Positions 2,024 through 31,350 are shown, counted from the first letter of the stretch. The stretch is 34,020 nucleotides of DNA from a virus (IMGVR_UViG_3300030372_003397:1-34020); one strand, 5' to 3'. Numbers and translations are program-made. Notes: a model not told the origin generated them from the letters alone.

Positions 2024-3286
2024 TTAACTATAAGCAAATCTAGTTCCCTCGCCTAACTTAGCTTGTCCAAGTACCCAAGCAGATGACCCTGCAGGACTAA
2101 GATTTAATTTATATTGCCATTTTTGATTACTACTATCAATATTATGAGTTATACTTTCTATCCATACTTCATCACTAAATGTTGAACTATTTGGATTTGT
2201 TATATTAACCTTTACTCTATCTCCGAATTCAAGTCCTAAAACTTTTGGCCATAAAGAAGTATTATCTCTTGGATCAATAGTTAAATTATCAATTCTTTCA
2301 ATCGGTGTTGAAGTTTCAGTTAATTTTTGTTGAATAATTGATAAAACATTAGAGTCTGATATATTTTTAGTAGTCTGTGTGCTAGTTTTTGCAGTATATC
2401 TATTTACACTATCAGCGTCTGCTACATACTGTTGTGATCCGCTATCTCTTGTCCACTCATAAACATTTCTAACTTCATTAGTATCAAAACTTGTTTCAAC
2501 ATTTTTAAAAGGTAAATTACTACCGCTATTATCAAAAGTTGCTTGTACTGTTGTTGCTTTAGCATTACTTAATTTATAATCTCTATTTCTAAATACTGCA
2601 TTGCCATTAGCACCAATAAAAAATTGAGCATTTTCAGCAGTTTCGCACTCTTGTAAGCCAGTTAAAAGATTAGTTGTTATAGCTTGTGTAATTATTTGTA
2701 ATGTTCCAGTACTAATTGTTCGCATTGAACTAGGAAAGCCAATAGAGTCTAATAACCTAGTTACTCTATTAGAAGTCAATTCTTGTACGTCATCATAACC
2801 TAATCTAGTAGAACTTCCTAACTCACTAAAACCACTTTGACCTATTTTCCAACCCACTGATTGTATTGTTTGACTTTGAAATATTTTAAATGCGTCAATA
2901 GCCCTAAATTGTGTAGTACTATCTGCACCTTTAGCAGGATATTTAACTGGAATAGTATCTAAAAAACCATAAAAAAGAACATAAGTAGCTGAATCATATG
3001 TAGCTGATACCTTTACTGTCTTTAATGGTTGTATTTTAGTCCTACCATTAGCGGAGTCATAATAATTTGTTGTTTGAGTAGGATTAAACCTATTATCAGT
3101 ATTTGATAATAATAACTCACAAGTCCCTGCAGTAAATTGTCCTAATTCATTACTTCTTCCGCGCGATATTGATATATTACGAACATATTGCGATATATCA
3201 GTAAAACTTTGGCTACTATCGAAAGGTTCGCTATCAAAACCTATTTGAACGGTTAAATTAACATTGCTATCAAAAGCAACACTCAT
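2024..3286 (-). CDS. Minor tail protein (tail tip/hub)
   Basis: Immediately after tape measure; ISISRGR...AGTC.L.L.N.D.RF.P motif of actinophage-type minor tail proteins. Confidence 0.75.
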   Translation of the reverse strand: MSVAFDSNVNLTVQIGFDSEPFDSSQSFTDISQYVRNISISRGRSNELGQFTAGTCELLLSNTDNRFNPTQTTNYYDSANGRTKIQPLKTVKVSATYDSATYVLFYGFLDTIPVKYPAKGADSTTQFRAIDAFKIFQSQTIQSVGWKIGQSGFSELGSSTRLGYDDVQELTSNRVTRLLDSIGFPSSMRTISTGTLQIITQAITTNLLTGLQECETAENAQFFIGANGNAVFRNRDYKLSNAKATTVQATFDNSGSNLPFKNVETSFDTNEVRNVYEWTRDSGSQQYVADADSVNRYTAKTSTQTTKNISDSNVLSIIQQKLTETSTPIERIDNLTIDPRDNTSLWPKVLGLEFGDRVKVNITNPNSSTFSDEVWIESITHNIDSSNQKWQYKLNLSPAGSSAWVLGQAKLGEGTRFAYS

Positions 3287-5688
3287 AATATAACCTTTAT
3301 ACCTCGCCTTTGGGCTTCTAATATAGCCATAGCAACTGCGTCTGGGTCATTACTTTGAATATTATTTTCTTGTTGTAAATGTAAAATAGTTGTTACTCCT
3401 GCTGTTTGGCCAATCCTATCCATTGCGCTAACTGGATCTACTACTGCAGGTGGAACATCACCACCACCTCCAAGACCTCCTCCAGTATCAAAGACATCTC
3501 CACCACCGCCATTATTACCACCACCACCAGTAGCAGTACTTGGTACTTCGCCATTAAATAAATTTAAAAACTGGCCCCTTAATCTATCTAATTGCATGCC
3601 TGTTTTATCTACCATAGCTTTAAATAGTTCCTCAAATGTTCCTAATGCCTCTGCGTCTGCCATAGCTTTATCTAGCTCTTCTTTAGCTAGTGCTATTTTT
3701 AATATATTTTCAGGTGTTTGAGCAGTAGCCTCGTTGTAATCTCTTGTTGCTTCAGTTAATAATTCCTGTGCCTTAGTTAAATTTTCCTCTGCTCGTTTTT
3801 GTTCATCTAATGCTCTTTCTAATTGCCTTTTCTTATCTAACTGCTCACTATCAGCACTAGTACTTGCTTTGATTAATTCAGTAAGTTTTTGTTTAGCTAA
3901 AGCTAGTTCAATTTCCTGTATTTTATTCTTTTCCTCGGCTTGTTCAAGGTCTTGAACTGCTTTTGTTTGCCTTAATATAGCTAATTCTTCTTCTAATGTT
4001 ACTTTTTTAGCTTCTTCCATTGCCCTTATATGTTCAAATTGTGCCTCCGTAACAAAGTCATTTGCGTCAGCTAGTTCCTTTTCTGCTTTACTTACTAACT
4101 TGCTAGCTTTCTTGCGATCCGTTAATAAATCTTCTTGCTCTTTATATATATCATTTAGGTTGCGTTGTGCTCTTTGTAATTTATCAAATGCACTTATAGC
4201 GTTTTGGTTAATGTTTTTAATTCTTTCCATTTCCGCTTCAGTTGCCTCTTTTACTGCTTCAGTATTTTCTTCAGTTTCCCTAGTGTGATTTTTTAAAGCT
4301 TCATTAATAATATCTTGTGTTGTAGCATAATTTGTTTGTACTCTATCTAATTCACGAGCCGAATCTATAGCTTTTTGTGTTGCACTTCTATGATCCGTTA
4401 CTAAATCAGTAGTTTTTTCAACTGATACTCCATAAGCATTGTATGCTCTTGGTAAATCTGTACCATATAGTCCTACATTCCTATCAATTTCATCAGCTGC
4501 TTCTTTCATCCTTTTATGTGTTTCTTTTTGTTTTGTTATAAATTTGCTAAATCCTTGAGTTACTTTAGTAATTTTTTGCACCATTGCAGTTAAGGCAGGA
4601 GCAATTATTTCGCCAATAAGTATTCCTAATTCAGAAAATGCGTTATTCATTAAATCTATTTGTGCCTTAAGCGATCCCATTTGTTTATCAGCAACCATTT
4701 CAGTTGTACCACCTGATTGCCTTAAATCAGCCTCATACTGTCTTATTTGGTCGCCTGCACCTGATAATATTTTAACTGCGTCAGCAACACCTCTATTAAG
4801 CCCTAATTGGTCTAAGGTGGCCGCTTTCATTTCATCAGACATTGGTCCTAATACTCCGTCTAGTTCCTCGACTATATCAGCAACATTTTTCATATTGCCT
4901 TGACTATCAAACATTTCTAAACCAAGTTTGGCAAACTCCTCACTATTTTTAGCAGTAGCTCTTGGTATATCTCTTAATACTTGGTTTAACTTTTCGCCAG
5001 CCTCAGCACCTTTAACACCTCTATCTGCAAAGGCAGCCAATACTGCAACACCTTCCTCAACATCTTTACCAACTACTTTTAAGGCAGCACCTGCTTTAGT
5101 AGTTAATGCTTCAGAAAACTGTTGCACACTTGCGTTAGCTAAGGTATTAGCTTTTACTAATACATCAGTTACTCTTGTTAAATTATTTAAGTTAGCTTGT
5201 GCGTCATCAACTGATAAACCTAAAGCAGATTGTGCGTCAGTTGCTAAGTCAGTAGCAGTAGCCATATCAAACATACCTGCTTGTGCAAATTTTGCAACTT
5301 GTGGTAAGGCAGCTACAGATTGTTCAGCATTTAAACCTGCTGACGCTAAAAAGAAAAATGCTTCAGCTGATTGGTCAGCACTAATACGAGTAGTCCTTGA
5401 AGTTTCAAGTGCAGCCTTTTTCATAGCCTCTTGTTGAACTACTGTTGTGTCCATAATGGCTAATGACTGTGTCATCTTATCATCAAAAGAAATAAATTCT
5501 TGAGTAGCTTTTGTTAAACCTTTAGCTAAACCTACTGCTAACGCAAGTCCTGCAACCTTTACGGCAGCACTAAATTTACCTAAACTTTTTCCTGATTTTC
5601 CACCTTGAGATCCAATACCTGCAAGTTGTCTTTTTGCTAATTCAGCACCTTTGGTAACTATATTTATAGCAATATCTGCCATTGCCAT
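3283..5688 (-). CDS. Tape measure protein (TP901-like core)
   Basis: 801 aa, Ala-rich helical; SAEAFFFLASAG, KGAEAGEKL, GNMKNVADIV motifs; follows chaperone genes. Confidence 0.93.
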   Translation of the reverse strand: MAMADIAINIVTKGAELAKRQLAGIGSQGGKSGKSLGKFSAAVKVAGLALAVGLAKGLTKATQEFISFDDKMTQSLAIMDTTVVQQEAMKKAALETSRTTRISADQSAEAFFFLASAGLNAEQSVAALPQVAKFAQAGMFDMATATDLATDAQSALGLSVDDAQANLNNLTRVTDVLVKANTLANASVQQFSEALTTKAGAALKVVGKDVEEGVAVLAAFADRGVKGAEAGEKLNQVLRDIPRATAKNSEEFAKLGLEMFDSQGNMKNVADIVEELDGVLGPMSDEMKAATLDQLGLNRGVADAVKILSGAGDQIRQYEADLRQSGGTTEMVADKQMGSLKAQIDLMNNAFSELGILIGEIIAPALTAMVQKITKVTQGFSKFITKQKETHKRMKEAADEIDRNVGLYGTDLPRAYNAYGVSVEKTTDLVTDHRSATQKAIDSARELDRVQTNYATTQDIINEALKNHTRETEENTEAVKEATEAEMERIKNINQNAISAFDKLQRAQRNLNDIYKEQEDLLTDRKKASKLVSKAEKELADANDFVTEAQFEHIRAMEEAKKVTLEEELAILRQTKAVQDLEQAEEKNKIQEIELALAKQKLTELIKASTSADSEQLDKKRQLERALDEQKRAEENLTKAQELLTEATRDYNEATAQTPENILKIALAKEELDKAMADAEALGTFEELFKAMVDKTGMQLDRLRGQFLNLFNGEVPSTATGGGGNNGGGGDVFDTGGGLGGGGDVPPAVVDPVSAMDRIGQTAGVTTILHLQQENNIQSNDPDAVAMAILEAQRRGIKVIL

Positions 5689-5882
5689 TATTTTTGTTTC
5701 CTTTTCTTATTTTCAGCTTCTTGCATAGCTATAACCTTATTTCTTTCCGTAATCTCCCAGTTGTAATATTTTATCCACTGGTTGTATTCCTTATTGCTCA
5801 TTTTAGTAGTTAGTTCGCCCACAGTCATGCCTAACTCTCTAGCAAGTTTAAATTGAAATAAGTTGTCGTTATTCGTTAGGAA
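5688..5882 (-). CDS. Tail assembly chaperone GT C-terminal part, probably reached by ribosomal frameshift
   Basis: Open frame FLTNNDNLFQFKLARELGMTVGELTTKMSNKEYNQWIKYY...KQK*, with the LAxELGxTVxEL..MS..E...W motif; stop overlaps TMP start (TAATG). Confidence 0.8.
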   Translation of the reverse strand, partial: FLTNNDNLFQFKLARELGMTVGELTTKMSNKEYNQWIKYYNWEITERNKVIAMQEAENKKRKQK

Positions 5883-6204
5883 AGTTATCTGCTTCCGCAG
5901 AACCTCCTATGCCGTTTACCTCGTTAATTATTAAAAATATTTTATCTATTACTTTGCTATCTTTTTTATAAAGTTCATCAATATCATCATCAGATAATTT
6001 GGGATCACTTACACAAACTTTTAATAATTCTTTTTGATAATCAAATGCGTCAGTATCGCCGTCCTCTAATTGCCTACCAAGTTCAACTTGCATAGCTTTA
6101 GAAATACCTTGCACTTCAATAGTGCAATTCCACTCGTCTATTTTTACTTCTTTTGTTGGGACGTCAGGCAAACTTTTAATGCCCTCTACACTTAATCTTT
6201 TCAT
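5869..6204 (-). CDS. Tail assembly chaperone G
   Basis: Acidic 111 aa protein between tail tube and TMP; V.IDEW...V and DP.L motifs. Confidence 0.82.
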   Translation of the reverse strand: MKRLSVEGIKSLPDVPTKEVKIDEWNCTIEVQGISKAMQVELGRQLEDGDTDAFDYQKELLKVCVSDPKLSDDDIDELYKKDSKVIDKIFLIINEVNGIGGSAEADNFPNE

Positions 6205-6224
6205 TTTACTCCTTATTTATAAAT

Positions 6225-6635
6225 TTAGTGAGTTCCGCGTGTTACTGCTCCTGTAACTTGTAAATCTGCTGAATATCCTACGACATCTCCAACAGGACTT
6301 GACTTAGAATAACTTGTCATTATTGCTTCGCCAGTATATTTAACTTTACCACTTGCAGTACCCTCTGGAGAGTATTCAAATGATAATGTTGCACTTTGGC
6401 CAACAACTGCACCGAATATTGCGTCTGCTGTTGCGTCCCATAGTCCTGATAATGAGATAGTTGCGTCTTTAAGTCCAACAATGTAGGTTTTATTGCTAGC
6501 CCCTAAAGTTGTTGTTTCAGCAACATCTGCGGTCTGAGGAAAATCAACATTATTTACATACGAACTTACATCAGTTAGTGATCCAGAACCATTGTCTAGT
6601 TTAAAAACCGAATCTGATCCATGTACAAATGCCAT
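6225..6635 (-). CDS. Major tail tube protein
   Basis: AETTTLG..KTYIVGLKDATISLSG motif, YSADLQVTG C-terminus, position before chaperone. Confidence 0.85.
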   Translation of the reverse strand: MAFVHGSDSVFKLDNGSGSLTDVSSYVNNVDFPQTADVAETTTLGASNKTYIVGLKDATISLSGLWDATADAIFGAVVGQSATLSFEYSPEGTASGKVKYTGEAIMTSYSKSSPVGDVVGYSADLQVTGAVTRGTH

Positions 6636-6643
6636 ATTTCTCC

Positions 6644-7360
6644 TTAATTGTTTCTTCCAAATCCTACTATAGCATTTATAGTAGGTGTTGAGCTACCACC
6701 AATAGTGTTATGTACTCTTACATAACGATTAATAGTAGTTCCTTTATCTACGTATTTTATTTCGCTTGTTGCCCCAGTTGCTTGCGTAAATGTAATCAAA
6801 TCAGCATAAGTAACATTATCTGCACTATGTTGTATTTTTACATCTCCAGTTGGACTTGTCCCACTAACTGAAGTAACAATTAAAAAAGCTCCTGCACCTG
6901 CGGTAGTACTTGAAGTATTATCTACTGCACTTCCTTGCGCACCTGTTGTTGTAAAAGCAGAATTAGTAATAACAACTCCCGAAAAAAGGCCATTATCAGG
7001 TTGCACATCAATACTTGTAGCAACTACATCGCCTACTGGACTAGATACTGCATAATTACTTATGTTACCTTTACCAAATGTATTTCTATCTCCTGTTGCT
7101 ACTCCGTCTAAACCAATAACTAAATTAAAATCAGCTCCACCTAATAAAGGTTGTAATACTCCGTCTGAAGTTGCGTCAAATAATCCACCTAAACTTATTG
7201 TTCCGTCTTTTTCTCCAGGTACATAAGTTTTATTACTATTACCAAATGTAGTTGTTTCAGCTATGTCCGCAGTTTGCGTACTATCTGCATTATTAAAATA
7301 TGTTGAGTAATTACTTGCATTAACATAAATAACTACATCTTTACCATGTACAAATGCCAC
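6644..7360 (-). CDS. Second tail tube paralog with ~110 aa C-terminal extra domain (GTG start)
   Basis: Shares MAFVHG, TAD.AETTT.G.SNKTY, KD.TISL.GL.DAT.D and SSPVGDVV with 6225..6635; GGAGGT RBS. Confidence 0.78.
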   Translation of the reverse strand: MAFVHGKDVVIYVNASNYSTYFNNADSTQTADIAETTTFGNSNKTYVPGEKDGTISLGGLFDATSDGVLQPLLGGADFNLVIGLDGVATGDRNTFGKGNISNYAVSSPVGDVVATSIDVQPDNGLFSGVVITNSAFTTTGAQGSAVDNTSSTTAGAGAFLIVTSVSGTSPTGDVKIQHSADNVTYADLITFTQATGATSEIKYVDKGTTINRYVRVHNTIGGSSTPTINAIVGFGRNN

Positions 7361-7398
7361 TATCTACCTCCGCAACAACCTTGACCACAACAGTCCAT
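7360..7398 (-). CDS. 12-aa Cys-rich micro-ORF MDCCGQGCCGGR
   Basis: Coupled on both sides (TAATG upstream, TAGTG downstream). Confidence 0.45.
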   Translation of the reverse strand: MDCCGQGCCGGR

Positions 7399-7478
7399 TA
7401 TCTCATACCTCGTCTTCTTCTCCTACGGCCACGCCTACGACGACCGCCACTTCCACTTCCATAACTACCTTTTGGCAT
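7398..7478 (-). CDS. 26-aa Arg-rich peptide MPKGSYGSGSGGRRRRGRRRRRRGMR
   Basis: TAATG overlaps at both ends, GAGGAGG upstream, mixed Arg codons. Confidence 0.6.
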   Translation of the reverse strand: MPKGSYGSGSGGRRRRGRRRRRRGMR

Positions 7479-7690
7479 TATTCCTCCTCAAATTCTGTAT
7501 CGTAATCATCTACTTTTAAATCTTTTTTAAGTTCCTCTTTAACAAATTCTTTTTTATCAAAACCTTTTGCAATTATTCCTTGGTCTAATAACCACTTTTT
7601 ACTTTTTTTAGGTATTTTATTTTCCGGCACAAGTGATCCAGCTTCAAAGTATTCTTTTCCTATTTCAATACCAACTTTAACTTCAAACAT
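7478..7690 (-). CDS. Small hypothetical protein in neck/tail module
   Basis: 70 aa, TAATG-coupled; WLLDQGII motif common in small structural-module proteins. Confidence 0.7.
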   Translation of the reverse strand: MFEVKVGIEIGKEYFEAGSLVPENKIPKKSKKWLLDQGIIAKGFDKKEFVKEELKKDLKVDDYDTEFEEE

Positions 7691-8097
7691 TATGCTATTA
7701 CCTCTACTGTAAATTCTACACCTAAATAATCTATGTTATTTACATTATACACACCGTAGTTGTCTGCCTCAATAACTCTAACTGAACTTGCAACGCCACC
7801 TAAAGTTAAATCACTTTCACATTGTGCTTTAATACTACTGGCCCCTGAACTGTTTAAATAAGCGTCTAAAGTCTCTTGGCTATCTTGTGCATCAACACGA
7901 CTTACATAGAGGAAAACAGGTATTTCGTAGGTGTCAGCACCTCTCTGCATGGTACTATCGTAATTAACATTATCTACTACACCAATTACCGCAGTAGGTG
8001 GTTCAATGCTATCTGGAACATATCCATATACTGATAATGAAGTAATGTTAGCTAAATTAGTTTTAATACCATTTCTAATATCAGTTAAACTAGCCAT
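7690..8097 (-). CDS. Tail terminator / tail completion protein
   Basis: Position; PDSIEPP and D.TLGG motifs. Confidence 0.72.
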   Translation of the reverse strand: MASLTDIRNGIKTNLANITSLSVYGYVPDSIEPPTAVIGVVDNVNYDSTMQRGADTYEIPVFLYVSRVDAQDSQETLDAYLNSSGASSIKAQCESDLTLGGVASSVRVIEADNYGVYNVNNIDYLGVEFTVEVIA

Positions 8098-8657
8098 TAT
8101 ATTTTACCTTTTCTACTTTTTTTAAAATTTGTTTCAATTCTTTTACTTGCTAATAACAATAATGTTTTTCTACTATCTTCGCTATTATCATAAGCAATTT
8201 TTAAAAATGGAACAATTGGAGTTCCTTTTATACTTATAGCTCTAGCAACTAAAAATGGATTAATTCCTTTTCTTTCAGCCCAACCTCTTAATGCCCTAAC
8301 TGGTGGAAAATGAGGCTTAGTTCTAGTCCAATTAGGACTTTCCTTATATTTTCCTGCAAAAGCTTTTTTAACATCTCCATGAACATAACTTGCGTGTTTA
8401 GCGGTAGCCATTACTTTAACACCTTTAGGTAAAGCACCAACTTGTGCAGTTCTACGAGTATATTTAATACTTGACTTTAAAGCTCCAGTATCATTTTTAT
8501 CATATTGGTCTAATACTGCTTTAGCCTCATCTTTTACTGCTTTGCCATATTCGTTATAAAATTTTCTAATTGGTGTATAAGCTAATCCACCTAATGCGAT
8601 CCGCTTTTTTAATTGACTTAAACCAGTAACTTTAACTGAAGTTCCAGTACCGGCCAT
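8097..8657 (-). CDS. HK97 gp10-like neck/tail completion protein
   Basis: Basic; V.GL..L, DTGALKSSI, YVH.G, PFL..A motifs. Confidence 0.75.
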   Translation of the reverse strand: MAGTGTSVKVTGLSQLKKRIALGGLAYTPIRKFYNEYGKAVKDEAKAVLDQYDKNDTGALKSSIKYTRRTAQVGALPKGVKVMATAKHASYVHGDVKKAFAGKYKESPNWTRTKPHFPPVRALRGWAERKGINPFLVARAISIKGTPIVPFLKIAYDNSEDSRKTLLLLASKRIETNFKKSRKGKI

Positions 8658-9271
8658 TATAAAGTTCTTTTAATATAGCCTTTAATTATTTTCATAGCGT
8701 CTGGATCAAATCTATTCAACAATTCAATATTGCCTGTTTGGTCCGAACCATAAACTGAAAAAGGGCTATCTTTGCGTTTAAATAATCTAGTAGCCTGTAA
8801 TAATGTAGCTTGTTTTATTGCGTCAGGTGGAGAGGAAAAACCAAACGCAGCAGTTACTTTTAATTGTTTAACTATACGAGGGTCAAATCTTTCACTACTT
8901 CTATCTTTTAAAATTTTTATACAAGTATAAGGTTGATATTGTAAATTAGTATCAGTTACATTAACTGGTGTTAAATAAAAATCAGTATCAATTGTTAAAG
9001 TTTTATTATGTGATCCATCATCATTATCATCTATTTTTACTACTAAACCTGAAGTTGTACTTATATCATCTACTAATACTTGATATTTTTCAATAGGTGT
9101 GTAATACCTATCTTGTGAGCTAGTTTGGTAAAATATACGATTGCATATTCTATCTATTTCACGACTTGCAGTTTCCACTGCGTTTTCTAAATTTTCATCT
9201 TGTCCGCTACCGCTAATGCCTGTATATGTTTTTAATTCTGCAAGTGAGCAATAGCCATTAACGATAGCCAT
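8657..9271 (-). CDS. Head-tail adaptor (gp6/gp15-like)
   Basis: YCSLAELK, ASREIDRICNR.F, P.AIKQATL motifs; follows capsid. Confidence 0.82.
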   Translation of the reverse strand: MAIVNGYCSLAELKTYTGISGSGQDENLENAVETASREIDRICNRIFYQTSSQDRYYTPIEKYQVLVDDISTTSGLVVKIDDNDDGSHNKTLTIDTDFYLTPVNVTDTNLQYQPYTCIKILKDRSSERFDPRIVKQLKVTAAFGFSSPPDAIKQATLLQATRLFKRKDSPFSVYGSDQTGNIELLNRFDPDAMKIIKGYIKRTL

Positions 9272-9277
9272 TACTTA

Positions 9278-9475
9278 TTACTTACCTTTATTTTCAACTG
9301 GCTTTTTAGCTTTAGTGTCTTTTAGTCCCCACTCTTTAGCTTGCATATCAGATACTTCTTGTCCTGCACGGCCAAGTAATTTACCTTTTCGCCAACCTTT
9401 AGGTATGTCGCCATTTGACTCGGCTACTTTGCCTTCATCATCTACCCAAACATCTTTTTTTAATGTAAATGCCAT
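9278..9475 (-). CDS. Small protein following capsid (start revised to ATG 9475)
   Basis: AGGAAAGGA RBS before MAFTLKKD...; ends KKPVENK as many post-capsid small proteins do. Confidence 0.7.
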   Translation of the reverse strand: MAFTLKKDVWVDDEGKVAESNGDIPKGWRKGKLLGRAGQEVSDMQAKEWGLKDTKAKKPVENKGK

Positions 9476-9491
9476 TTTATCCTTTCCTAAT

Positions 9492-9533
9492 GGTGCCTCG
9501 CCTGAATTAGTTGCCCAGTCCAAGCGAGTTACC
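9492..9533 (-). promoter_or_regulatory. RNA stem-loop downstream of capsid gene
   Basis: CUCGCUUGGA/UUCAGGCGAG stem with G-U pairs on the mRNA strand, capped by a GCAA tetraloop; no U-tract. Confidence 0.6.
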
Positions 9534-9549
9534 ATAATCTAAGTTTATC

Positions 9550-10797: not shown

Positions 10798-10805
10798 AAT
10801 TTCTC

Positions 10806-22055: not shown

Positions 22056-22069
22056 TTGAACTCCTTTAG

Positions 22070-23170: not shown

Positions 23171-23172
23171 AA

Positions 23173-23379
23173 TTATATCCTCTCTTCATTTTCGCCAAAC
23201 ATATTAGTACTATGTAAGGTTTCGCCATTTTGCATACGGCCAATAAAGTCCGTATAATCTTTTTTTGGTTCTCGCTCTAACCATTTTTGTATCTCCCATA
23301 TAAGTGATCCAAACATTATGGTCATAAATATCATCATTATCCACTCATATAAGTTTGCACCATTGTATAAAGTGTCCAT
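23173..23379 (-). CDS. Small membrane protein
   Basis: One hydrophobic segment WIMMIFMTIMFGSLIW. Confidence 0.65.
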   Translation of the reverse strand: MDTLYNGANLYEWIMMIFMTIMFGSLIWEIQKWLEREPKKDYTDFIGRMQNGETLHSTNMFGENEERI

Positions 23380-23564
23380 TATATATCCTCTACTAATAGT
23401 CTTACTTCATCATTAGTAAGATATTTTCTAGCCTCTTCAGTTTCAGGATGAAACATTAATCTAGAATTAGCTAAACTCATAGCTAAATCTTGATTAACTT
23501 TTTGCCAATTCAAATATTTTGCACTTGTTATTGCAATTATTACTAACTTAATAAATAACTTCAT
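23379..23564 (-). CDS. Hypothetical protein
   Basis: TAATG-coupled on both sides, AGGAG RBS. Confidence 0.65.
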   Translation of the reverse strand: MKLFIKLVIIAITSAKYLNWQKVNQDLAMSLANSRLMFHPETEEARKYLTNDEVRLLVEDI

Positions 23565-23689
23565 TACTTTTCTCCTTTAATAAATCGTTCAACAATAATA
23601 TCATCTGCACACTTAGCAATTGTATGCAAATCATCTCTATCTAATTTTTTAGCGTTTTTTATAATGTATAATATATTTTCTAATTCCAT
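23564..23689 (-). CDS. 41-aa hypothetical protein MELENILYIIKNAKK...KGEK (not in ORF track)
   Basis: Exactly fills the gap with TAATG overlaps at both ends; GAGGT RBS. Confidence 0.65.
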   Translation of the reverse strand: MELENILYIIKNAKKLDRDDLHTIAKCADDIIVERFIKGEK

Positions 23690-23928
23690 TATCTAACACC
23701 TCGATTACCTCTAGGAATAGGCTTTGCATTATGGTTAAGACCAATTTCAGCACTATCACTAATTAACTCTAAGTTAATAGGGTCAGTTATAATAGGACTA
23801 TACAATTGCACTATTCTATCGGAACTAGCTACATGAGTTAAAAAAACTCTTGCACCTTTGATATAACCTACATATTCTTTGCCAGTAAGTAACATATCAT
23901 TATCATTTTTGGCTTTATATACTTTCAT
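23689..23928 (-). CDS. Hypothetical protein
   Basis: 79 aa, GAGGAG RBS, follows promoter cassette. Confidence 0.68.
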   Translation of the reverse strand: MKVYKAKNDNDMLLTGKEYVGYIKGARVFLTHVASSDRIVQLYSPIITDPINLELISDSAEIGLNHNAKPIPRGNRGVR

Positions 23929-23990
23929 TTACTACTCCTCGTTAATATAAGTTTATTATATACCTATATTAAGAAAAACAACAACTTCTT
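23929..23990 (-). promoter_or_regulatory. Sigma70-type promoter plus RBS cassette, copy 2
   Basis: AAGAAGTTG...ATAGGTATATAAT...CTTATATTA..GAGGAGTAGT. Confidence 0.7.
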
Positions 23991-24000
23991 GTATATTTTT

Positions 24001-24540
24001 TTATTTAACTAAACTAAGGAATTCAGCCCTAGTTTCGGGCTCTTTTCTAAAGGCTCCTTGCATTACGGAAGTAATCATTTGGCCGTCTGTTTTAATACCT
24101 CTTGCAACCATACATAAATGTTGCCCCTCTGCATAAACTGCAATATCTTTTGTTTCAACAAGTGATCCAAGTTCGTCTGCTATATCCTGTACTAATTTTT
24201 CCTGTAATTGTAATTTATGTGCATGTTTATGTGCAACTCTAGCAAATTTAGATAAACCTAAGACTTTCTTTTTTGTTATATAACCTATTGAAATAGTTGA
24301 ATTAAAAGGCATTAAATGGTGTTCACATAAAGACCATACTTTTATATTTTTTACTATTACCATTTGGTCAGCTTTTACTGCTTCAAATGTTGTTTCAATT
24401 TTTCCTGGTTCGTAATTAATAAATTCGTTCCAATATTTAGCAACTCTTTTAGGTGTTTCTAATAGTCCGTCCCTTTTTGGATTTTCGCCTAACTCTCTTA
24501 ATAATGAAACTATTAGTTGTTCTATCCTTTTTTGGTTCAT
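24001..24540 (-). CDS. folE: GTP cyclohydrolase I
   Basis: GLLETPKRVA, SLCEHHLMPF, GLSKFAR, LQE, HLCM..RG; ATGA-coupled start at 24540. Confidence 0.96.
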   Translation of the reverse strand: MNQKRIEQLIVSLLRELGENPKRDGLLETPKRVAKYWNEFINYEPGKIETTFEAVKADQMVIVKNIKVWSLCEHHLMPFNSTISIGYITKKKVLGLSKFARVAHKHAHKLQLQEKLVQDIADELGSLVETKDIAVYAEGQHLCMVARGIKTDGQMITSVMQGAFRKEPETRAEFLSLVK

Positions 24541-25274
24541 TTTGCTCTTTCCTTGTTCCATAATAAAGTATGCAACCTCGGGCTTAAATTAAAACCTGCC
24601 TTTAATATTTCAGGAGCTAAATTATACATATTTATAAATTGGTCTTTGTTATTACTACCCTCTGCCATAATATAAATATTTCTTAATTTATTTTCTTTTA
24701 CTATATTTTTAACTATGTCTAAATCTTGCGGATCACTTACTACAAACTTAAACATACAATTTTTTGCGTTACTTTGATATTGTTGCAAAACTTTAGGTTT
24801 AATAGTTTTATCTAAACTCATACCACTATTAGGTAACTTAGGGCTGCAATTTATATAATCAACATATTTAAAAAACTCTTCATCTTTTATTTGTACTGTT
24901 CCATTAGTTTCAATTTCTATTTTATATTTTTCTTGTTTTAGCATTTTCATAATAATTAACAACTTAGTTTGTTGTACCATTGGTTCGCCACCACTTATAA
25001 CAATATGACTACCTTTAGGTAATTTCATTTGACTAATTTGAAATAAAATTTGTTCAGGATACATACCGATAGTTTCCTTTTTTGGATCATATATAACTCC
25101 ATTTTTACCTTTCCAGTCCCATGTATAAGGAGTATCACACCAGCTACAAGTTAAATTGCAACCACTTGTCCTAATAAAAGCACATAACTTACCTACTGTT
25201 TGTCCCTCGCCTTGAAAAGTAGGTCCAAATATTTCATTAATCCTAATTAATGGCAACCTAACTGCATTAGTCAT
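24537..25274 (-). CDS. queE: 7-carboxy-7-deazaguanine synthase (radical SAM)
   Basis: EIFGPTFQGEG, CNLTCSWCDT, SGGEP, IETNG, SPKL, PRLH. Confidence 0.95.
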   Translation of the reverse strand: MTNAVRLPLIRINEIFGPTFQGEGQTVGKLCAFIRTSGCNLTCSWCDTPYTWDWKGKNGVIYDPKKETIGMYPEQILFQISQMKLPKGSHIVISGGEPMVQQTKLLIIMKMLKQEKYKIEIETNGTVQIKDEEFFKYVDYINCSPKLPNSGMSLDKTIKPKVLQQYQSNAKNCMFKFVVSDPQDLDIVKNIVKENKLRNIYIMAEGSNNKDQFINMYNLAPEILKAGFNLSPRLHTLLWNKERAK

Positions 25275-25645
25275 TATTGTTTATAACTAGCAAAAGTCTT
25301 TGGTGTTTCGCTAACTACTACCTCTTGTACTAATAAATTTTTATCTATTTGGCTAAAAGCTAATTTAAAATAATGATATAAATATTGTGCTAAGTTTTCA
25401 GCACTAGTTTGAAAGTCAAATATATCATTTAAGTTTTTATGGTCTAATTCATTATCAATATATTTTTTTATAAAGTCCATTTTTCCATAATCGAATACAA
25501 AGCCGTCATTATTAACTTCATTTGAACTTAATATAACTTCAACTTTATAATTATGGCCGTGCAACCTACCGCACTTATGACCCTCTTCTAAACCATGTAA
25601 TTGGTGCGCACTAGCAAATTCAAATACTTTACCAATTGTAAACAT
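25274..25645 (-). CDS. queD: 6-carboxy-5,6,7,8-tetrahydropterin synthase
   Basis: F.SAHQL, CGRLHGHNY, LDHKNLN, SAENLA, SETPKT. Confidence 0.95.
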   Translation of the reverse strand: MFTIGKVFEFASAHQLHGLEEGHKCGRLHGHNYKVEVILSSNEVNNDGFVFDYGKMDFIKKYIDNELDHKNLNDIFDFQTSAENLAQYLYHYFKLAFSQIDKNLLVQEVVVSETPKTFASYKQ

Positions 25646-25649
25646 TTAT

Positions 25650-26432
25650 TTACTTGCTTTCGGTCCACTCTTTTTCTAATTTAAGAGCATTTTCAAGTGC
25701 ATTATCCCAACCGTCAATATATTCAACTGGATCTCTACGACCTAATTTCCAAAAGGCTAATATTCTTTCGACATCGCTTCCTGTTTTACCATTAGCACGT
25801 CCTTTTTCATCAGGAGCATAACTTGTATTAGTATTAGCAAAAATAGTATTAAATTCTAAACCTAACTTATTGCAATTAGAATCACAATCTTGAAGTATTG
25901 TGAATTTATCTCCGTCAATATAAGGCAACTTTAATTGCACTAATTCGTTATCCCAATTTCCAATTCTAAAAGCATTCATAGCTTCGACATAAAATTCTGG
26001 TCTGCAATCAGGGTAAATTTCATGGTCTCCGCTATGAACACCTAAGCCAATATCTACTTGGCAGTTTTCTCTCGTTGCAATAGACAGGGCATATCCGGCT
26101 ATCATTGAGAAAAATATCATATTTCTATTTGGGACAACAGTCGCTTTCATATTATCTTGTTCGTAATGACCTTCAGGTACTTCAATATTATCAGTGACTA
26201 AAGCAGATTCATATATGTTACCTAATTGACTTACATCTAAAATAGTATGTTCAACTTGAAAACCTTTTTCTTTTAAATAAACTAAATTATCAGCTAATCT
26301 TTCCAGTTCTAATTTATGTTTTTGTCCATAATCAAAACTTAAAGCACTTACTTTATAGTCATTAGCTAAAAATGACACTAATAAAGCCGTACTATCCATA
26401 CCACCACTTAAACTTAATACTGCTCTTTTCAT
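25650..26432 (-). CDS. queC: 7-cyano-7-deazaguanine (preQ0) synthase
   Basis: SGGMDS, FDYGQKH, VPNRN, YPDCRPEF; ATGA-coupled start at 26432. Confidence 0.95.
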   Translation of the reverse strand: MKRAVLSLSGGMDSTALLVSFLANDYKVSALSFDYGQKHKLELERLADNLVYLKEKGFQVEHTILDVSQLGNIYESALVTDNIEVPEGHYEQDNMKATVVPNRNMIFFSMIAGYALSIATRENCQVDIGLGVHSGDHEIYPDCRPEFYVEAMNAFRIGNWDNELVQLKLPYIDGDKFTILQDCDSNCNKLGLEFNTIFANTNTSYAPDEKGRANGKTGSDVERILAFWKLGRRDPVEYIDGWDNALENALKLEKEWTESK

Positions 26433-26824
26433 TGTTCGCAATATCCTACTGAAGTAGTTTCAATACCGCCTCTTTTACTTTGTTTATTTGTAACTTTTAC
26501 CCATTTAGGATCCAAAGTATCAAATAATTTTTGTGCAATATCACTTGCTAATGCTTCGCAAAAATGACCAACTTCTCTAAATGTCCATAAATATAGCTTT
26601 AAAGATTTACTTTCAATACATAACTCATTTGGTTCATATAAAATCGTTAATTGGCCAAAATCAGGTTGCCCAGTCATTGGACATAAACTTGTTAATTCGT
26701 CTGTCCAAAACTCTACTGTTTTAGTATTTTTTGGAGTTGGAAAAGTTTCCAATTGCTCCATAGGATTTCGTGTCTTTTTGCCTAATATAGTTAGGTCTTT
26801 TGTATATTCAGGCTCATTAGCCAT
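26429..26824 (-). CDS. queF: NADPH-dependent preQ0 reductase, type I
   Basis: SLCPMTGQPDF catalytic motif, QueF motif ESKSLKLYL, RGGI. Confidence 0.93.
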   Translation of the reverse strand: MANEPEYTKDLTILGKKTRNPMEQLETFPTPKNTKTVEFWTDELTSLCPMTGQPDFGQLTILYEPNELCIESKSLKLYLWTFREVGHFCEALASDIAQKLFDTLDPKWVKVTNKQSKRGGIETTSVGYCEQ

Positions 26825-26881
26825 TATTCCTCCTAGTTTTAAAGGTTGTCTAGTACTTTTAATTAAATATAGCAGTTAATT

Positions 26882-27415
26882 TTAAACTATGTAGCGTTTT
26901 TGTGAATTTGGTAGAGGTGCTAAGTCTTCTAATAATAAGTCCCAATAAGTAAAAGGCAGGCCAGTTTTAGATAATCCGTGCCATTTATAGCCTAAACTTT
27001 CATAAAAACCAATACTTGGTTTATTAGCAAAAAATCTAAGGTACCTTACTTTGTTATCTAAAATTTCCTTACTTAAGTAACTCATCATTTCAGAGCCAAT
27101 ATTTTTTCCTCTATAATTTTCTAAAACAAAAAAATGTCTTAAAGTGCAATGTCTCGGCTCTCGTTTAGTAAAACTAATAAACATAAATGCTTTTTGGTCT
27201 AAATGTAGTACTTTTGCATTAGGACTATTCCATTGTTTTTCTATATTCCAGTCATAAATAGCATTTTTTAAATGACTTTTACTGCTTAGTGATCCACCTT
27301 TATAATCGTCAATACTTACTAATAATGCTTTGCAATAGTCCTCATCTACTTCTCCAAAGCCATAATTATCTAACTCATCATCTAAATCGTCTAATATAGG
27401 ATTATCAAATATCAT
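26882..27415 (-). CDS. GNAT-family N-acetyltransferase
   Basis: FVLENYRGKNIG (motif A) and N..SIGFYESLGY (motif B). Confidence 0.85.
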   Translation of the reverse strand: MIFDNPILDDLDDELDNYGFGEVDEDYCKALLVSIDDYKGGSLSSKSHLKNAIYDWNIEKQWNSPNAKVLHLDQKAFMFISFTKREPRHCTLRHFFVLENYRGKNIGSEMMSYLSKEILDNKVRYLRFFANKPSIGFYESLGYKWHGLSKTGLPFTYWDLLLEDLAPLPNSQKRYIV

Positions 27416-27516
27416 TTGTGGTGTGCGTGTCCATATTTATAGTTACATATTGTTATAAATGTACCATTATCTTTAACATAAGTTGTGCAATAACTTCTAT
27501 TTTTTATTTCTTTCAT
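27412..27516 (-). CDS. 34-aa peptide MKEIKNRSYCTTYVKDNGTFITICNYKYGHAHHK
   Basis: ATGA overlaps at both ends linking the SLT and GNAT genes. Confidence 0.55.
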   Translation of the reverse strand: MKEIKNRSYCTTYVKDNGTFITICNYKYGHAHHK

Positions 27517-27929
27517 TTAGGACCCCAACAATGCTTGCTACTATTCCAATGATGCCAGCCGTCATTATATACCAACCAACGCGCCACTTTAGTAGATAAA
27601 AGCGGATCCAATCTCGTTCCGTCAAATTTTAATTTTCCTTTCAGCCAAGCCCAAGTTTTGTCATTAAATTGCCAAAGTCCTATATCTTGTGTTCCATTAG
27701 TATTATTTCCTACTGCTTTACTTTTTCCTCTTGACTCGCAATATATTATTTGTAAAGCCTTAATAATATCTTCTTCGTAAAAATGTTTTTCAATAAGTGG
27801 TTGCCAAACTTGCACCACTTCTATTTGGTGCTCAACTACTTTGCAATTGCGATATTCGACTATTGTTGTTGGTGTAGGTTCAACTAACAATAGGCATGTT
27901 ATTATTGGCGAAAGTAAAAATGTCATCAT
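27513..27929 (-). CDS. Lytic transglycosylase (SLT/lysozyme-like), probably exported
   Basis: CES catalytic Glu, GLWQF, GW.HW motifs; hydrophobic N-terminus. Confidence 0.85.
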   Translation of the reverse strand: MMTFLLSPIITCLLLVEPTPTTIVEYRNCKVVEHQIEVVQVWQPLIEKHFYEEDIIKALQIIYCESRGKSKAVGNNTNGTQDIGLWQFNDKTWAWLKGKLKFDGTRLDPLLSTKVARWLVYNDGWHHWNSSKHCWGPK

Positions 27930-28053
27930 ACTCTAAATTTAATCTAATTATACCTAGAGGCAGGTCTTTACTTTCCATAATATCGCCATTTTCTATAAGT
28001 ACTTTTGGTCCATTACCAGTATTTTCAATACCGACAATTTTCTTATCTACCAT
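27880..28053 (-). CDS. 57-aa hypothetical protein MVDKKIVGIENTGNGPKV..., possibly leaderless
   Basis: Open frame filling the gap; TG-T-TATACT extended -10 ends 6 nt before the ATG. Confidence 0.5.
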   Translation of the reverse strand: MVDKKIVGIENTGNGPKVLIENGDIMESKDLPLGIIRLNLEYDDIFTFANNNMPIVS

Positions 28054-28194
28054 ATAAAAAGTATAACATAGTTATAAAATTTATGGTATTTTATGGCCCC
28101 TTTTCTAAAAGCCCATAAACATTGACTATTTAGACCCTTGAGAATGCCCTCAGACAAAAGTAAATTTAAGTATGGTACAAGTTACCATAGATAT

Positions 28195-29406
28195 TTATAA
28201 AATTTTTAAGTTATCCCAACCTTGTTTAGATAATGTGAAAGTTAATACTCCATGACTTGTAGTTAGACCTAATCTTGCTTCTAATTCTTTTGAAGTGTCT
28301 AAACTTGGACTTTGGATCCAAGTCCTACCTCTTTCAGTTAATACTCTTAAATGGTGGTAATGGCCAGTTATTAATAAATCAGAAGTTCCTGCAGGTAATC
28401 TAGCCATAGCTTGGTTTTTCCACCAATTAATTAATTTATTTTCAGCATTACCTCCACCTCCAGTCATATGGCCATGATAAAAAGTAATCCTTTTATCTTT
28501 TACTTCTAAAGTTAAATAAAAATCATCAGGTATAACAGTTTTAACATGCTTATATCTTTCTCTTCCTGAAATTATTTCGCCAACTATTTGAAATATTGCA
28601 GTATCACTTCCGTCTAATCTTGTAGTACTAATTGAAGTTTTACCACTTCTATATTCACTATGATTACCTATAACACCGCCAATAACTATTTTTGGTGCTA
28701 ATTTTATAAAGCCGTCTAATATTTCAATTACCATTAACCTTGCAATATGTTCTTGTTCGGTCCTAGTTAGCTCAACATTAAATGGTTGGTGGTCAAAAAA
28801 TCCATAACAATTTTCAATTAAGTCCCCAATTCCTATAATATATATCTCATCTATAAGTGATCCGCTTTTATTTAAGTGTTTTATTTCTTCTTGTGCTTTT
28901 TTTATGCTTTGTTTTATATATGCAACAGTTTCATCGCTACCCCAATCTGCGTTATATTCAGCTTTACCAAATTGCCAATCAGCACAAATATAAAAGTATG
29001 CATGTGTGCCTTTATATTTTTTAATTTGTATTAGTTTTTTACTTTTAACATACCTTTGTAACTCTTTAAAGTATTTATCGTGTTTAGGTTTTTTTCTTCT
29101 TATAGTTGCCTTAAAAGCATACATTTGCTCTATACGGCCACCTTTTAATTGCGTGTCCCAAGTGCTAAATTTAATACTTTCTTCTTCAATATAAAATTCA
29201 TCAGGATTAAAGCCCCAACTATTAAGTAGTGAGTTAAATTTAAAATTATCTGTTTCAGGTTGTATGTGCGTTACTTCGCCACTATTCGTATTATTATCCC
29301 AACTTCTTTGAGGTTTCCAACCACTTGGATAGTAATTATTGCCTAATTCGTCGTTGTGTAATACTTCTTTCTTGTTTTTTATTAACTTTTTAACCTTATC
29401 GGTCAT
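28195..29406 (-). CDS. Calcineurin-like metallophosphoesterase (Mre11/SbcD-like, actinophage type)
   Basis: ADWQ.GK, GDLIE, GNH, HGH, GHYHH motifs. Confidence 0.85.
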   Translation of the reverse strand: MTDKVKKLIKNKKEVLHNDELGNNYYPSGWKPQRSWDNNTNSGEVTHIQPETDNFKFNSLLNSWGFNPDEFYIEEESIKFSTWDTQLKGGRIEQMYAFKATIRRKKPKHDKYFKELQRYVKSKKLIQIKKYKGTHAYFYICADWQFGKAEYNADWGSDETVAYIKQSIKKAQEEIKHLNKSGSLIDEIYIIGIGDLIENCYGFFDHQPFNVELTRTEQEHIARLMVIEILDGFIKLAPKIVIGGVIGNHSEYRSGKTSISTTRLDGSDTAIFQIVGEIISGRERYKHVKTVIPDDFYLTLEVKDKRITFYHGHMTGGGGNAENKLINWWKNQAMARLPAGTSDLLITGHYHHLRVLTERGRTWIQSPSLDTSKELEARLGLTTSHGVLTFTLSKQGWDNLKIL

Positions 29407-29423
29407 AAGGTTATGTTAGCAAT

Positions 29424-29609
29424 TTAATTCAATAAAGAACTAAAACTAGCAAAAAGAACTGCAAATGCAGTGATCCAACCTGTTATTTCCATACGAGTTG
29501 GTCTTGTATTAACTAAATCAAATAGCTGATTAACTTCTTTTTGCAAATCCTCTTGCCCTTTTAAGAGCAAGTTAAGCATTTCTTTATTTGTATAACCGTT
29601 ATCGCTCAT
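29424..29609 (-). CDS. Small membrane protein, lysis module
   Basis: Short coiled coil plus C-terminal TM segment. Confidence 0.6.
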   Translation of the reverse strand: MSDNGYTNKEMLNLLLKGQEDLQKEVNQLFDLVNTRPTRMEITGWITAFAVLFASFSSLLN

Positions 29610-29745
29610 TTTCGTTTGGTCCTGTAATCCAATCCCACTCTAATTCTTGCGTAATTCTTTCAATTTTATCGACCTTTTGTAGTATAAAGTATATCATTTT
29701 TATTAAAAAATAAAGCGATACTATACTCATAAAAATATTTTCCAT
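29599..29745 (-). CDS. 48-aa membrane protein MENIFMSIVSLYFLIKMIYFIL... (not in ORF track)
   Basis: AAGGAG RBS, N-terminal TM segment, fills gap. Confidence 0.6.
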   Translation of the reverse strand: MENIFMSIVSLYFLIKMIYFILQKVDKIERITQELEWDWITGPNENER

Positions 29746-29756
29746 TATAAATCTCC

Positions 29757-30278
29757 TTAATGTCCATGATTCATTGCTTCTAAATATGCAATTCTATTTT
29801 TAATATCATCTAACTGCCATGTTTCAAGTTGGTTAGTTTCTAATATTGTTACTTTTTTTTGTAAATCTTGCCACTCCCATTTCATAAGTTCATATGATTG
29901 ACTATCTTGACTTGGATTATTTAAGTCAGATATATACCTATTTTGAAAGTCATCGACTTTCCACTCTAAATCCCTTACTTCTGTTTCTAAATTTTGGTAA
30001 TTTGCCCTTAATATTGTTAATTCATTTTCTAAATATTCGGCATTATATGCAACTTGTTCTAATTGATATATTTTTTCATAAAGTATTGCTATATCATTTG
30101 ATACCATAGTACTTTCTTTTAACTGGTAAAATTCATATTCAATATTATTCATACGTTCATCAATACCAGTTAAAGTATTAACTATATTTGAGACTGATTG
30201 AAAACCAGCACCAATTGAACCTAATAAAGTAATACCAGTTACTACTAAAGCTAAATTATCTTTTAATTTTTTAAGCAT
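29757..30278 (-). CDS. Membrane-anchored coiled-coil protein
   Basis: N-terminal TM segment then heptad-rich sequence. Confidence 0.68.
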   Translation of the reverse strand: MLKKLKDNLALVVTGITLLGSIGAGFQSVSNIVNTLTGIDERMNNIEYEFYQLKESTMVSNDIAILYEKIYQLEQVAYNAEYLENELTILRANYQNLETEVRDLEWKVDDFQNRYISDLNNPSQDSQSYELMKWEWQDLQKKVTILETNQLETWQLDDIKNRIAYLEAMNHGH

Positions 30279-30490
30279 TAACCGCCTACTTTAAACAATA
30301 TCTCTCTTATAACTTCTTCTATTATTGTTAAATTTTGATTAAAGCCTGCAATACTTTCTTGATAAGCTACTACTTGAGCCTTTAAAGTTGCTACTTCTTG
30401 TTGTAGGTCATTTACTGTTTTAAATAACCAAGCTACTAAGGCAGCTAAACCACCTTGTAATATTTGTCCTAAATTTACCTTAGCTTCCAT
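30278..30490 (-). CDS. Small TM plus coiled-coil protein, lysis module
   Basis: GGLAALVAWLF followed by heptads; TAATG-coupled. Confidence 0.65.
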   Translation of the reverse strand: MEAKVNLGQILQGGLAALVAWLFKTVNDLQQEVATLKAQVVAYQESIAGFNQNLTIIEEVIREILFKVGG

Positions 30491-30708
30491 TAATCCTCAA
30501 AGGTTGCCTTAGGCTTATACTGTTCTAATGCGTGTTGAATTACTGTAATAAATGAACTTAAAAATGCCACTCCTAATAATTCAAACAAGTCTGCGTCAAT
30601 TATTCCTGTACTATTTGCTAGGTATAAAGATATTGCAGATTGTAATCCTGTTCTAAATGCTTTTGAAAACATAAACTTCCAATAAGCTTTCCAATTATTT
30701 TTTTTCAT
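30490..30708 (-). CDS. Putative holin (r1t-like)
   Basis: KAFRTGLQSAI resembles the r1t holin RAxKTxxQ motif; two hydrophobic segments; follows endolysin candidate. Confidence 0.62.
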   Translation of the reverse strand: MKKNNWKAYWKFMFSKAFRTGLQSAISLYLANSTGIIDADLFELLGVAFLSSFITVIQHALEQYKPKATFED

Positions 30709-30765
30709 TTTTCTCCTAAAATTACTTTTTATATAATTTTAGCAATATAGTTACTCGGTTGGAAG

Positions 30766-31350
30766 TTATACTATTTTATTCTTTAAAACTGCTGATTTTA
30801 TTTGTTTTAAATCTTTAATTATTTTATTAAACTTATCATCTACTACTTGCGTTAGCATTAAATCATCAGTACTTTTATTGGAAACTTGCGGATCACAATT
30901 GATACTTGATATAGTTAATGTTACTTTTTCGCCATTAACCATAGGAACTGCAATCTTATCATACATTTTTTTATAAGCATTACGACTTGACCCTATAAAA
31001 CCGTCCTTACTTACATCTAAGTCTTGTTGTGTATCGCCAACTAGAACGCAACCTGCCGAATTTTCGTCGGTATTACCACTATGAAAAAGCACCCATTTAA
31101 AGTTAGGTATATCTTTTATTTCAAGCATTCCATAATGTGCATTTTTATATCTAGCCGAATACCTATTATGAAAACCACCCTCTTTTCTAAATTCAATAGG
31201 ATAAGTTCCTTCAGGTATAGCAGTTTCGCCATAAACTTTAACTTCTCTAACTTCGTCCTCTAAGGTATAACACTCAAATACACCATTAATAAATAACATA
31301 CCGTTAGTTGCGTCCTCGCCAAACTGCGTGCGGATCACATCAAGTTTCAT
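30766..31350 (-). CDS. DUF5675-like protein, putative endolysin (L,D-peptidase-like)
   Basis: T.G.L, YTLED, AIPEGTY, HSGNT..NSAGCVLVG, SRNAY motifs; next to holin. Confidence 0.78.
   Translation of the reverse strand: MKLDVIRTQFGEDATNGMLFINGVFECYTLEDEVREVKVYGETAIPEGTYPIEFRKEGGFHNRYSARYKNAHYGMLEIKDIPNFKWVLFHSGNTDENSAGCVLVGDTQQDLDVSKDGFIGSSRNAYKKMYDKIAVPMVNGEKVTLTISSINCDPQVSNKSTDDLMLTQVVDDKFNKIIKDLKQIKSAVLKNKIV

Follow-up and report, generated by a model that had tools for sequence, protein, structure and literature searches.

Why should a phage genome of 32% GC carry one GC-rich word many times over, inside unrelated genes and on both strands? This question is raised by IMGVR_UViG_3300030372_003397, a stretch of 34,020 nt that was analyzed in full (the window) and that CheckV rates as 100% complete. 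It belongs to an HK97-type siphophage, the main genes of which all lie on the minus strand. An earlier note on this DNA counted 10 copies of GTGATCCGC, 27 of GTGATCC and 34 of WGYGATCC, and argued that selection acts on the DNA itself; our recount gives the same numbers at the same places. An amino-acid-preserving null had been named beforehand as the check, and we compared word counts with 1,000 synonymous shuffles of 51 open reading frames (31,146 nt). On the coding strand, GTGATCCGC occurs 6 times versus 0.09 expected, and its reverse complement 4 times versus 0.03. Hence the enrichment survives, and selection on the DNA, with positive enrichment, is borne out. The pattern is real and strong, and it is more structured than the earlier note described.

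The underlying feature is the way in which GATC is tolerated. In the window, 57 of the 58 GATC sites are found as GGATC on one strand or the other (GGATC/GATCC), a confinement to one 5′ base that we call a lock. Within coding sequence (CDS), [ACT]GATC[AGT] is absent where the synonymous null predicts 34.5 occurrences. Conversely, GGATC (37 versus 12.5 expected) and GATCC (27 versus 14.4) lie together about 2.4-fold over the null, GGATCAC is seen 18 times versus 1.1, and BGGATC 57 times versus 14, a 4-fold excess. Because nearly all GATC shares one context and the other contexts are empty, the purge of GATC and the enrichment of GGATC are one phenomenon. The suggestion that the motif is enriched beyond GATC avoidance therefore stands in part: the excess over the null is real, but it is not independent of avoidance, GGATC being the sole context that escapes the purge. 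Restriction-site avoidance, well known in phages, resembles the depletion of the non-GG contexts; avoidance alone, however, yields no excess, flank lock or even spacing. Many other restriction-type words, among them GATGC, ACAGC, CCATC, GGTGA and ACGT, are also depleted. The enriched words GGCGA, GACGC and GACGG were considered as parts of the motif and set aside; nearly all of their copies are on one strand, and we read them as the synonymous substitutes by which GGTGA, GATGC and GATGG are avoided.

The bases around the core are preferred in a graded manner, with BGGATC at 56 of the 57 sites, GGATCNC at 40, GGATCRCW at 34 and GCGGATC at 14, giving a consensus of WWGYGATCC(A/GC); GGATCC accounts for only 10 sites. 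The 9-mer of the earlier note is the best-fit end of this graded preference, and the true unit is shorter. Few copies of the 9-mer are present in relatives of the same clade, and the ten in the window, taken alone, are not significantly even in spacing (P=0.14). They lie at 2434..2442 (a best-fit copy), 11096..11104, 21041..21049 and 28857..28865 on the plus strand, and at 13322..13330, 16991..16999, 22436..22444, 24728..24736, 30888..30896 and 31330..31338 on the minus strand. The whole array spans 344..32854, with GATC starting at 345, 1225, 1280, 2272, 2436, 3435, 4116, 4392, 4673, 5609, 6003, 6580, 6616, 7635, 8598, 8704, 9012, 10058, 10336, 10347, 11098, 11680, 13325, 13467, 14069, 14582, 15222, 15794, 16540, 16647, 16994, 17979, 18573, 18833, 19402, 19966, 21043, 21225, 21871, 22439, 22829, 23306, 24164, 24731, 25085, 25730, 26509, 27291, 27605, 28315, 28859, 29472, 30891, 31333, 31895, 32494 and 32850. 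The lone GATC that breaks the rule (20600..20603, AGATCG) is located between the genes for a DpdA4 enzyme and a replication initiator. As had been claimed, the sites are written into genes in different frames: 55 are in CDS, in all three frames, and 2 are intergenic. The claimed concentration of GC-rich codons at the sites is likewise seen; codons lying no more than 4 nt from a GATC make up 2.4% of all codons, yet hold 7/18 CCG, 4/12 CGC and 11/29 ATC. Where a synonymous change could create a site, 55 of 338 positions are in use (27/50 for GTGATCC, 7/67 for GCGATCC, 9/85 for GGATCC).

The sites are also evenly spaced. Their mean gap is 597 bp, with a coefficient of variation (CV) of 0.59 versus 0.97 for the null; none of 20,000 uniform draws was as even, and the longest gap is 1,645 bp (P=0.005). 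This evenness holds against the 338 positions open to synonymous recoding, which are used at a rate of 6–11% when another site lies less than 300 bp away and 27–54% beyond. In an evenness scan of 1,979 words, GATC and GATCC came out on top, level with one degenerate 5-mer, and the best scores of nine other genomes were lower (2.2–2.8 versus 3.2). No spaced word was found in five near-complete GATC-free genomes (about 1,800–2,200 words each), and GAGCC in genome G012, though enriched, is not evenly spaced (P=0.11). Strand-specific spacing was considered and rejected; each orientation is even, but not beyond random subsets of the union (P 0.20, 0.12).

Comparison with relatives shows that site positions turn over while the spacing is kept. 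Relatives at 78–84% nucleotide identity retain the lock, with one exception among 37 distinct sites. The relative L002 shares 6 sites with the window, which has 9 of its own, and carries 5 others. At several shared sites the core is unchanged and the flanks are altered, as for the 9-mers at 11096..11104 (core retained in L002, L081 and L041) and 13322..13330 (L001, L002 and L041). None of the seven new sites scored in relatives is closer than 400 bp to a shared site, where 3.6 would be expected to lie that far away (P=0.008); this score leaves out L002/L081/L131 duplicates, one non-GG site, and the locus L272, which shares none of 5 window sites and has 3 new ones, 42–214 bp from those lost. 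The longest gap of the window contains four near-miss words, and relatives carry sites at the places of two of them. In four locked groups the gaps average 659, 692, 681 and 684 bp (CV 0.44–0.59, P<0.01 each). When the gaps of 16 locked loci are pooled (n=190), 13 are shorter than 200 bp versus 49 expected, and none exceeds 1.8 kb versus 13 expected. Each site appears to carry both a cost, which shows in the purge and the lack of short gaps, and a benefit that levels off over a few hundred bases, which shows in the excess and the lack of long gaps.

The lock is one of several states within a single phage family. Among 88 non-redundant loci of at least 4 kb, drawn from 206, 45 are GATC-free, 23 are GATC-rich (1.3–5-fold), 13 are locked (6 CGATC, 4 GGATC, 3 AGATC) and 7 are other. 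In a terminase tree of 84 sequences, the GG and AG groups are sisters, a GATC-free DpdA4 clade is next, and the CG lineage stands apart. The GATC-free DpdA4 clade lacks the stretch that carries the 9-mer at 21041..21049 in the window. The AG lock is looser than the others (5 exceptions among 40 sites). A second CGATC lock, with TCGATC preferred, is found in L126, L130 and L055 (28/28 sites). Outside the family, two GC-rich loci from metagenomes, each of which has a ParB-like gene (L281, L282), carry GATC mostly as GGATC or CGATC.

A candidate writer of the lock is encoded at 19305..20528 on the minus strand. Profile, homology and fold evidence assign to this protein an N-terminal ParB/Srx part (residues ~9–137) and a C-terminal DUF6610 domain (~158–400; PF20314, E 2e-34, above cut-off). 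A predicted model (pLDDT 78) has the ParB/Srx fold followed by a transglycosylase (TGT) barrel; VIA-align gives Z 14.0 with archaeosine TGT 1iq8 (rmsd 4.3, 239 aligned) and 11.7 with DpdA 7ui4 (rmsd 4.6, 235 aligned), where generic barrels reach up to Z 12.5, and Foldseek matches to TGTs are at E ~2e-5. Residues D216, D243 and D343, which we take to be the counterparts of the catalytic aspartates of TGT, are unchanged in 16/16 aligned sequences. DUF6610 corresponds to DpdA4, a guanine transglycosylase, according to passages of PMC10516641; the domain is 48–50% identical to gp1 of mycobacteriophages Knocker, Rinkes and Funsized, and Knocker gp1 is given as DpdA4 in the supplement of that paper. 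DpdA enzymes are described as having distinct short targets, such as GA for iggy and GA/GGC for CAjan, and as blocking some restriction enzymes (PMC10484667, PMC10516641).

In addition to this gene, the window encodes a complete set for preQ0/preQ1 synthesis, all on the minus strand: FolE (24001..24561, Pfam), a QueE-like radical SAM protein (24537..25274) and QueC (25650..26441), both by family profile matches, QueD (25274..25645, PTPS, Pfam) and the preQ1 synthase QueF (26429..26824, above the TIGR03139 cut-off). A GNAT acetyltransferase, assigned by family profile, lies directly after QueF in coordinate order, on the same strand (26882..27415), and its best solved matches are diamine acetyltransferases. 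It is a possible preQ1 N-acetylase and hence a candidate source of an undescribed N-acetyl-preQ1 in DNA. Our literature search returned nothing relevant on a GNAT acting on preQ1, and in the parts of PMC10516641 consulted "acetyl" (text) and "acetyltransferase" (supplement) each occur zero times. Homologues occur in the DpdA4 clade that has no GATC (67%) and in the amino acid:DNA transferase (ADDT) cassettes of L349 and L350 (56–60%). An orphan methyltransferase shield differs from what is seen here in that the complete window record has no match to the N6/N4, D12 or C5 methyltransferase families (PF01555, PF02086, PF00145).

A tie between enzyme and lock comes from three DpdA4 clades, each of which has another locked base. 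DpdA4 identity is 85–92% in the GG clade, 70% in the AG clade and 50% in the CG clade. DpdA4 and Que genes accompany the GG lock in the window, L001, L271 and L272; the AG lock in L276 and L277, together with a C5 methylase; and the CG lock in L158, L260 and L261, together with an N6/N4 methylase. In GG and AG sister phages, the terminases of which are 81% identical, the locked base has switched together with clade-fixed DpdA4 residues. Such residues occupy 35% of columns at 158–200 and 32% at 341–400, versus 9% in the catalytic core (201–340), and cluster towards both ends of the barrel (strands one and two, and the closing part); judging from the TGT structure, these loops would face the DNA. 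The tie to the ParB-fused transglycosylase proposed in the earlier note is plausible to this extent.

More generally, the DNA-modification cassette of the family is swappable and usually comes with a ParB-N gene. TET-based cassettes are found in GATC-free genomes, and TET-associated glycosyltransferase (TAGT) without TET in GATC-rich ones; three near-complete GATC-rich genomes, for example, have ParB-N plus TAGT and no TET gene (L239:7304-9263, L241:2665-4102, L242:6705-8223). A GATC-free relative carries a hypermodification cassette of TET, ADDT, amidoligase and kinase (L247:4619-10336). Another lineage has a cassette of ParB, PAPS-reductase/DUF3440, sodium:solute symporter and ParB (L254:14764-18471, L375, L374); L254 and L375 carry spaced CCAGATC, and L374, the cassette of which is 95% identical, has no such pattern. 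Among about 17 lineages that lack DpdA4 and in which the cassette region is seen, only one is semi-locked. Several GATC-free genomes show no cassette, nor does the GATC-rich genome G039 (L244/L245). G039 has 454 GATC in 31 kb, no modification gene, methylase or Dam, and a similar gap limit; together with L146, L149 and L064, it belongs to a set with 14–20 GATC per kb, an approximately 5-fold excess. In three GATC-rich genomes, GATC-poor tail-gene blocks (L244:15052-18246; G028 11588-14949; G031 31197-34183) are cut by 1–3 sites into pieces of at most 1.9 kb, although the cases are few. The 3.2-kb block of G039, best matched by GATC-free phages, contains one site, 1,673 and 1,521 bp from its ends.

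The explanation that we favor, with a probability of roughly one half, is that DpdA4 protects GATC in a single context against restriction, and that a host factor scanning the DNA has to meet a marked GATC at least once per 1.7 kb. We read the lock as a shield written by DpdA4 because it follows the phage's enzyme. The need for GATC seems to be host-side, because it is seen in a genome without a modifier and because GATC-poor blocks are interrupted so that no piece exceeds 1.9 kb. In this scheme, GATC would be costly because hosts restrict it; the ParB-DpdA4 fusion would replace a guanine of GGATC by a 7-deazaguanine, protecting the site from GATC-cutting enzymes, and its variable barrel loops would set the allowed 5′ base. 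A reader reaching a few hundred bases to each side would reward isolated sites, such that surplus sites are lost and long gaps filled. This reader would probably belong to the host, and the tag could be either the deazaguanine or a mark that the host places on GATC (N6-methyladenine or phosphorothioate); DNA with a marked GATC at least every 1.7 kb would then be treated as self. The graded flanks (GGATCRCWW, GCGGATC) may be the extended footprint of writer or reader. Mark spacing has been proposed, not shown, to matter for self-recognition by DndFGH and SspE (passages of PMC8053081), and phosphorothioate (PT) marks impede DndFGH translocation (passages of PMC11662687). These DndABCDE-DndFGH/DndI and SspE systems resemble the proposed one in that a translocating nuclease is restrained by sparse marks; they differ in that the PT spacings given in those passages are mostly 1.5–10 kb, and in that the footprint described here is in a phage genome.

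A number of observations weigh against this explanation. With 45 of 88 loci GATC-free, the need for spacing is not universal. The sister DpdA4 clade (63–64% identical, same Que genes and GNAT) is all but devoid of GATC and shows no other word at even spacing; DpdA4 therefore does not need the array. Seven distant loci with DpdA4, including Knocker, are not locked, and only four DpdA4 clades are seen, three of them close kin. The methyltransferases of the AG (C5) and CG (N6/N4) lineages could be the shield there. The CCAGATC semi-lock of L254 and L375 occurs without DpdA4, L374 having no lock, and a search for a cassette in the TCGATC lineage found none. The degenerate 5-mer AGRTT (CV 0.77) tied GATC on evenness score in the word scan. 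A plain "GG dinucleotide" shield was rejected, since GGTGA, GGATG, GATGG and GAAGG are still depleted and the survivors follow no rule. Finally, in the one measured DpdA4 virus about 30% of G is modified, far above the yield of a 5-bp target (passages of PMC10516641).

Several of these points would fit a pattern written by the host. A host lineage might mark GATC, by phosphorothioate or methyl, best in one flank context and read the density of marks, with DpdA4 incidental. GATC-rich relatives without Dam or DpdA4 are consistent with this idea (no D12 Dam scored above cut-off in 23/23 records), as are the CCAGATC lock without DpdA4, the GATC-free DpdA4 clade, and the presence of PT marks on only 10–15% of sites reported in passages of PMC8053081. 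On the other hand, it does not predict that sister phages change the locked base together with clade-fixed DpdA4 loops, nor that GGCC is released in the GG clade (34 versus 21 and 39 versus 20 expected) and absent from the GATC-free sister clade (0 versus 12). We regard a host-written origin as rather improbable, with perhaps a minor share of the weight. The GGCC sites themselves (42 in the window, with RGGCCY at 0 versus 4 expected) are not evenly spaced (CV 0.91).

The earlier note proposed instead that the motif is a parS-like loading site for the ParB fusion. As landing pads, the sites would let ParB-DpdA4 modify the DNA around them, a few hundred bases in either direction, and even spacing would provide full coverage. 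The fused ParB/Srx fold, the covariation of lock and clade, the extended 11–12 bp preference and a range of about 300–800 bp, compatible with spreading, all suit such a role. ParB proteins have a helix-turn-helix (HTH) DNA-binding domain and a GxxR CTP patch, and parS is a palindromic site of about 16 bp in few, clustered copies. In the fusion, a profile search matched no HTH family, with ParB_N below cut-off, and at the position that we take to be the arginine patch, 15 of 16 aligned rows read AGNHT, without arginine; one row reads GNHR. Apart from the ParB-N fold, the phage shows none of the expected features: there is no palindromic 16-bp site, cluster or partner ParA, but rather 57 asymmetric, dispersed sites of 5–12 bp. 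No spaced word is found in the GATC-free DpdA4 clade or in the GATC-free TET/ADDT lineages that bear ParB, and GATC is over-represented, with a gap limit, in a relative that has neither ParB nor modifier. Moreover, loading gives no reason for the core to be, without exception, GATC, the very word that is purged. We therefore consider a loading site unlikely.

The identity of the host bears on a further alternative. Sequencing runs in which the window phage is best represented are marine, and close strains are present in marine samples (four runs compared). Since actinobacteriophages provide the best cultured matches of the tail tube and the lysozyme and most of those of the capsid, the host is probably a marine actinobacterium of low GC, for instance one of the Actinomarinales (Actinomycetota). 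A capsid alignment matched nothing in the genome contig collection. The lysozyme matched one contig, in a gammaproteobacterial metagenome-assembled genome (MAG) without the capsid, probably a mis-binned assignment; nine genomes around this MAG, their link to the host being doubtful, hold 7–92 motif copies per 2–7 Mb. The passages of the Actinomarina literature consulted state nothing on GATC.

A housekeeping signal of the host is slightly less likely still. The sites might mark the strand for mismatch repair through GATC, serve as an uptake sequence, or organize the chromosome in the manner of HIP1. Uptake sequences number in the hundreds to thousands on the chromosome of a competent host. Dam-directed repair typically acts over a limited distance near 1–2 kb, which would fit the gap limit. 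However, Actinomycetota, to which the best cultured matches point, are not known to have MutH; the word is non-palindromic, its 5′ base switches between sister phages, and 14 GATC per kb in some relatives exceeds any repair need. HIP1 (GCGATCGC) of cyanobacteria is likewise a GATC-core word in genes, over-represented, kept by selection and periodic in its non-random spacing (PMC5861425). The phage word differs from it in being asymmetric, coupled to the purge of other GATC, and spaced at sub-kilobase distances, compared with HIP1 periods of 10–90 kb; there are 0 copies of GCGATCGC in the window. The CG lineage (L045, L148, L158, L260) does prefer CGATCGC, a part of HIP1 (6+6 versus 0.2+0.4).

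The least probable reading is that there is no positive function, with biased repair or mutation making shielded GGATC, and with close pairs being lost because a two-site (type IIE) enzyme like Sau3AI cuts best where two sites are near each other; it suits the depleted short gaps and the rise of new sites far from old ones, but not the 4-fold excess over the synonymous null, the multi-step and partly non-synonymous gains, the lack of gaps above 1.8 kb, or the one mean spacing shared by four groups with different words and neutral expectations.

Two features of the window lie outside these arguments. A 367-aa protein at 17869-18972 with a HELSH (HExxH-like) motif has no Pfam, PHROG or NCBIfam match and is present in several relatives. 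A possible terminal repeat (1-137 versus 33884-34020) was not accepted; it matches at only 124/137 positions, an imperfect overlap that is possibly a strain mixture.

DpdA4 is a known enzyme family, previously seen in HVTV-1 and Knocker (passages of PMC10516641). The window shares with described DpdA systems the family itself, the full FolE-QueE-QueD-QueC-QueF pathway and the expected anti-restriction role. The known targets have 2–3 bases, and the passages of PMC10484667 and PMC10516641 consulted give no DpdA4 target, nor any genome rewritten around one shielded restriction word, with even spacing or a lock that switches with clade. What is new is the switching of the lock with the DpdA4 clade; a literature search, with most subscription papers and some supplements that may bear on DpdA4 targets outside it, returned nothing relevant on a spaced, lineage-switching GATC lock. 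A bolder version of the favored explanation, which we hold more tentatively, is that the family wears a "self barcode" of one chemically marked GATC per ~670 bp. DpdA4 would have switched target (GG-, AG-, CG-ATC), with the genome re-edited each time, for an undescribed host defense that judges the distance between marks and not single sites; the mark may be N-acetyl-preQ1.

If the favored explanation is true, these genomes would for the first time allow DpdA4 targets to be predicted, from genome sequence alone. Three specificity variants that occur in nature would come with them, together with candidate loops, and such variants could serve as sequence-specific DNA guanine-exchange enzymes. 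The genomes would also provide genome-scale evidence that a defense reads the spacing of DNA marks, the idea put forward for phosphorothioate systems, and a length scale for it, with a mean of ~670 bp and a limit of ~1.7 kb. For the family itself, restriction-site content is not only a matter of avoidance: GATC can be absent, locked and spaced, or five-fold enriched within one group of phages.

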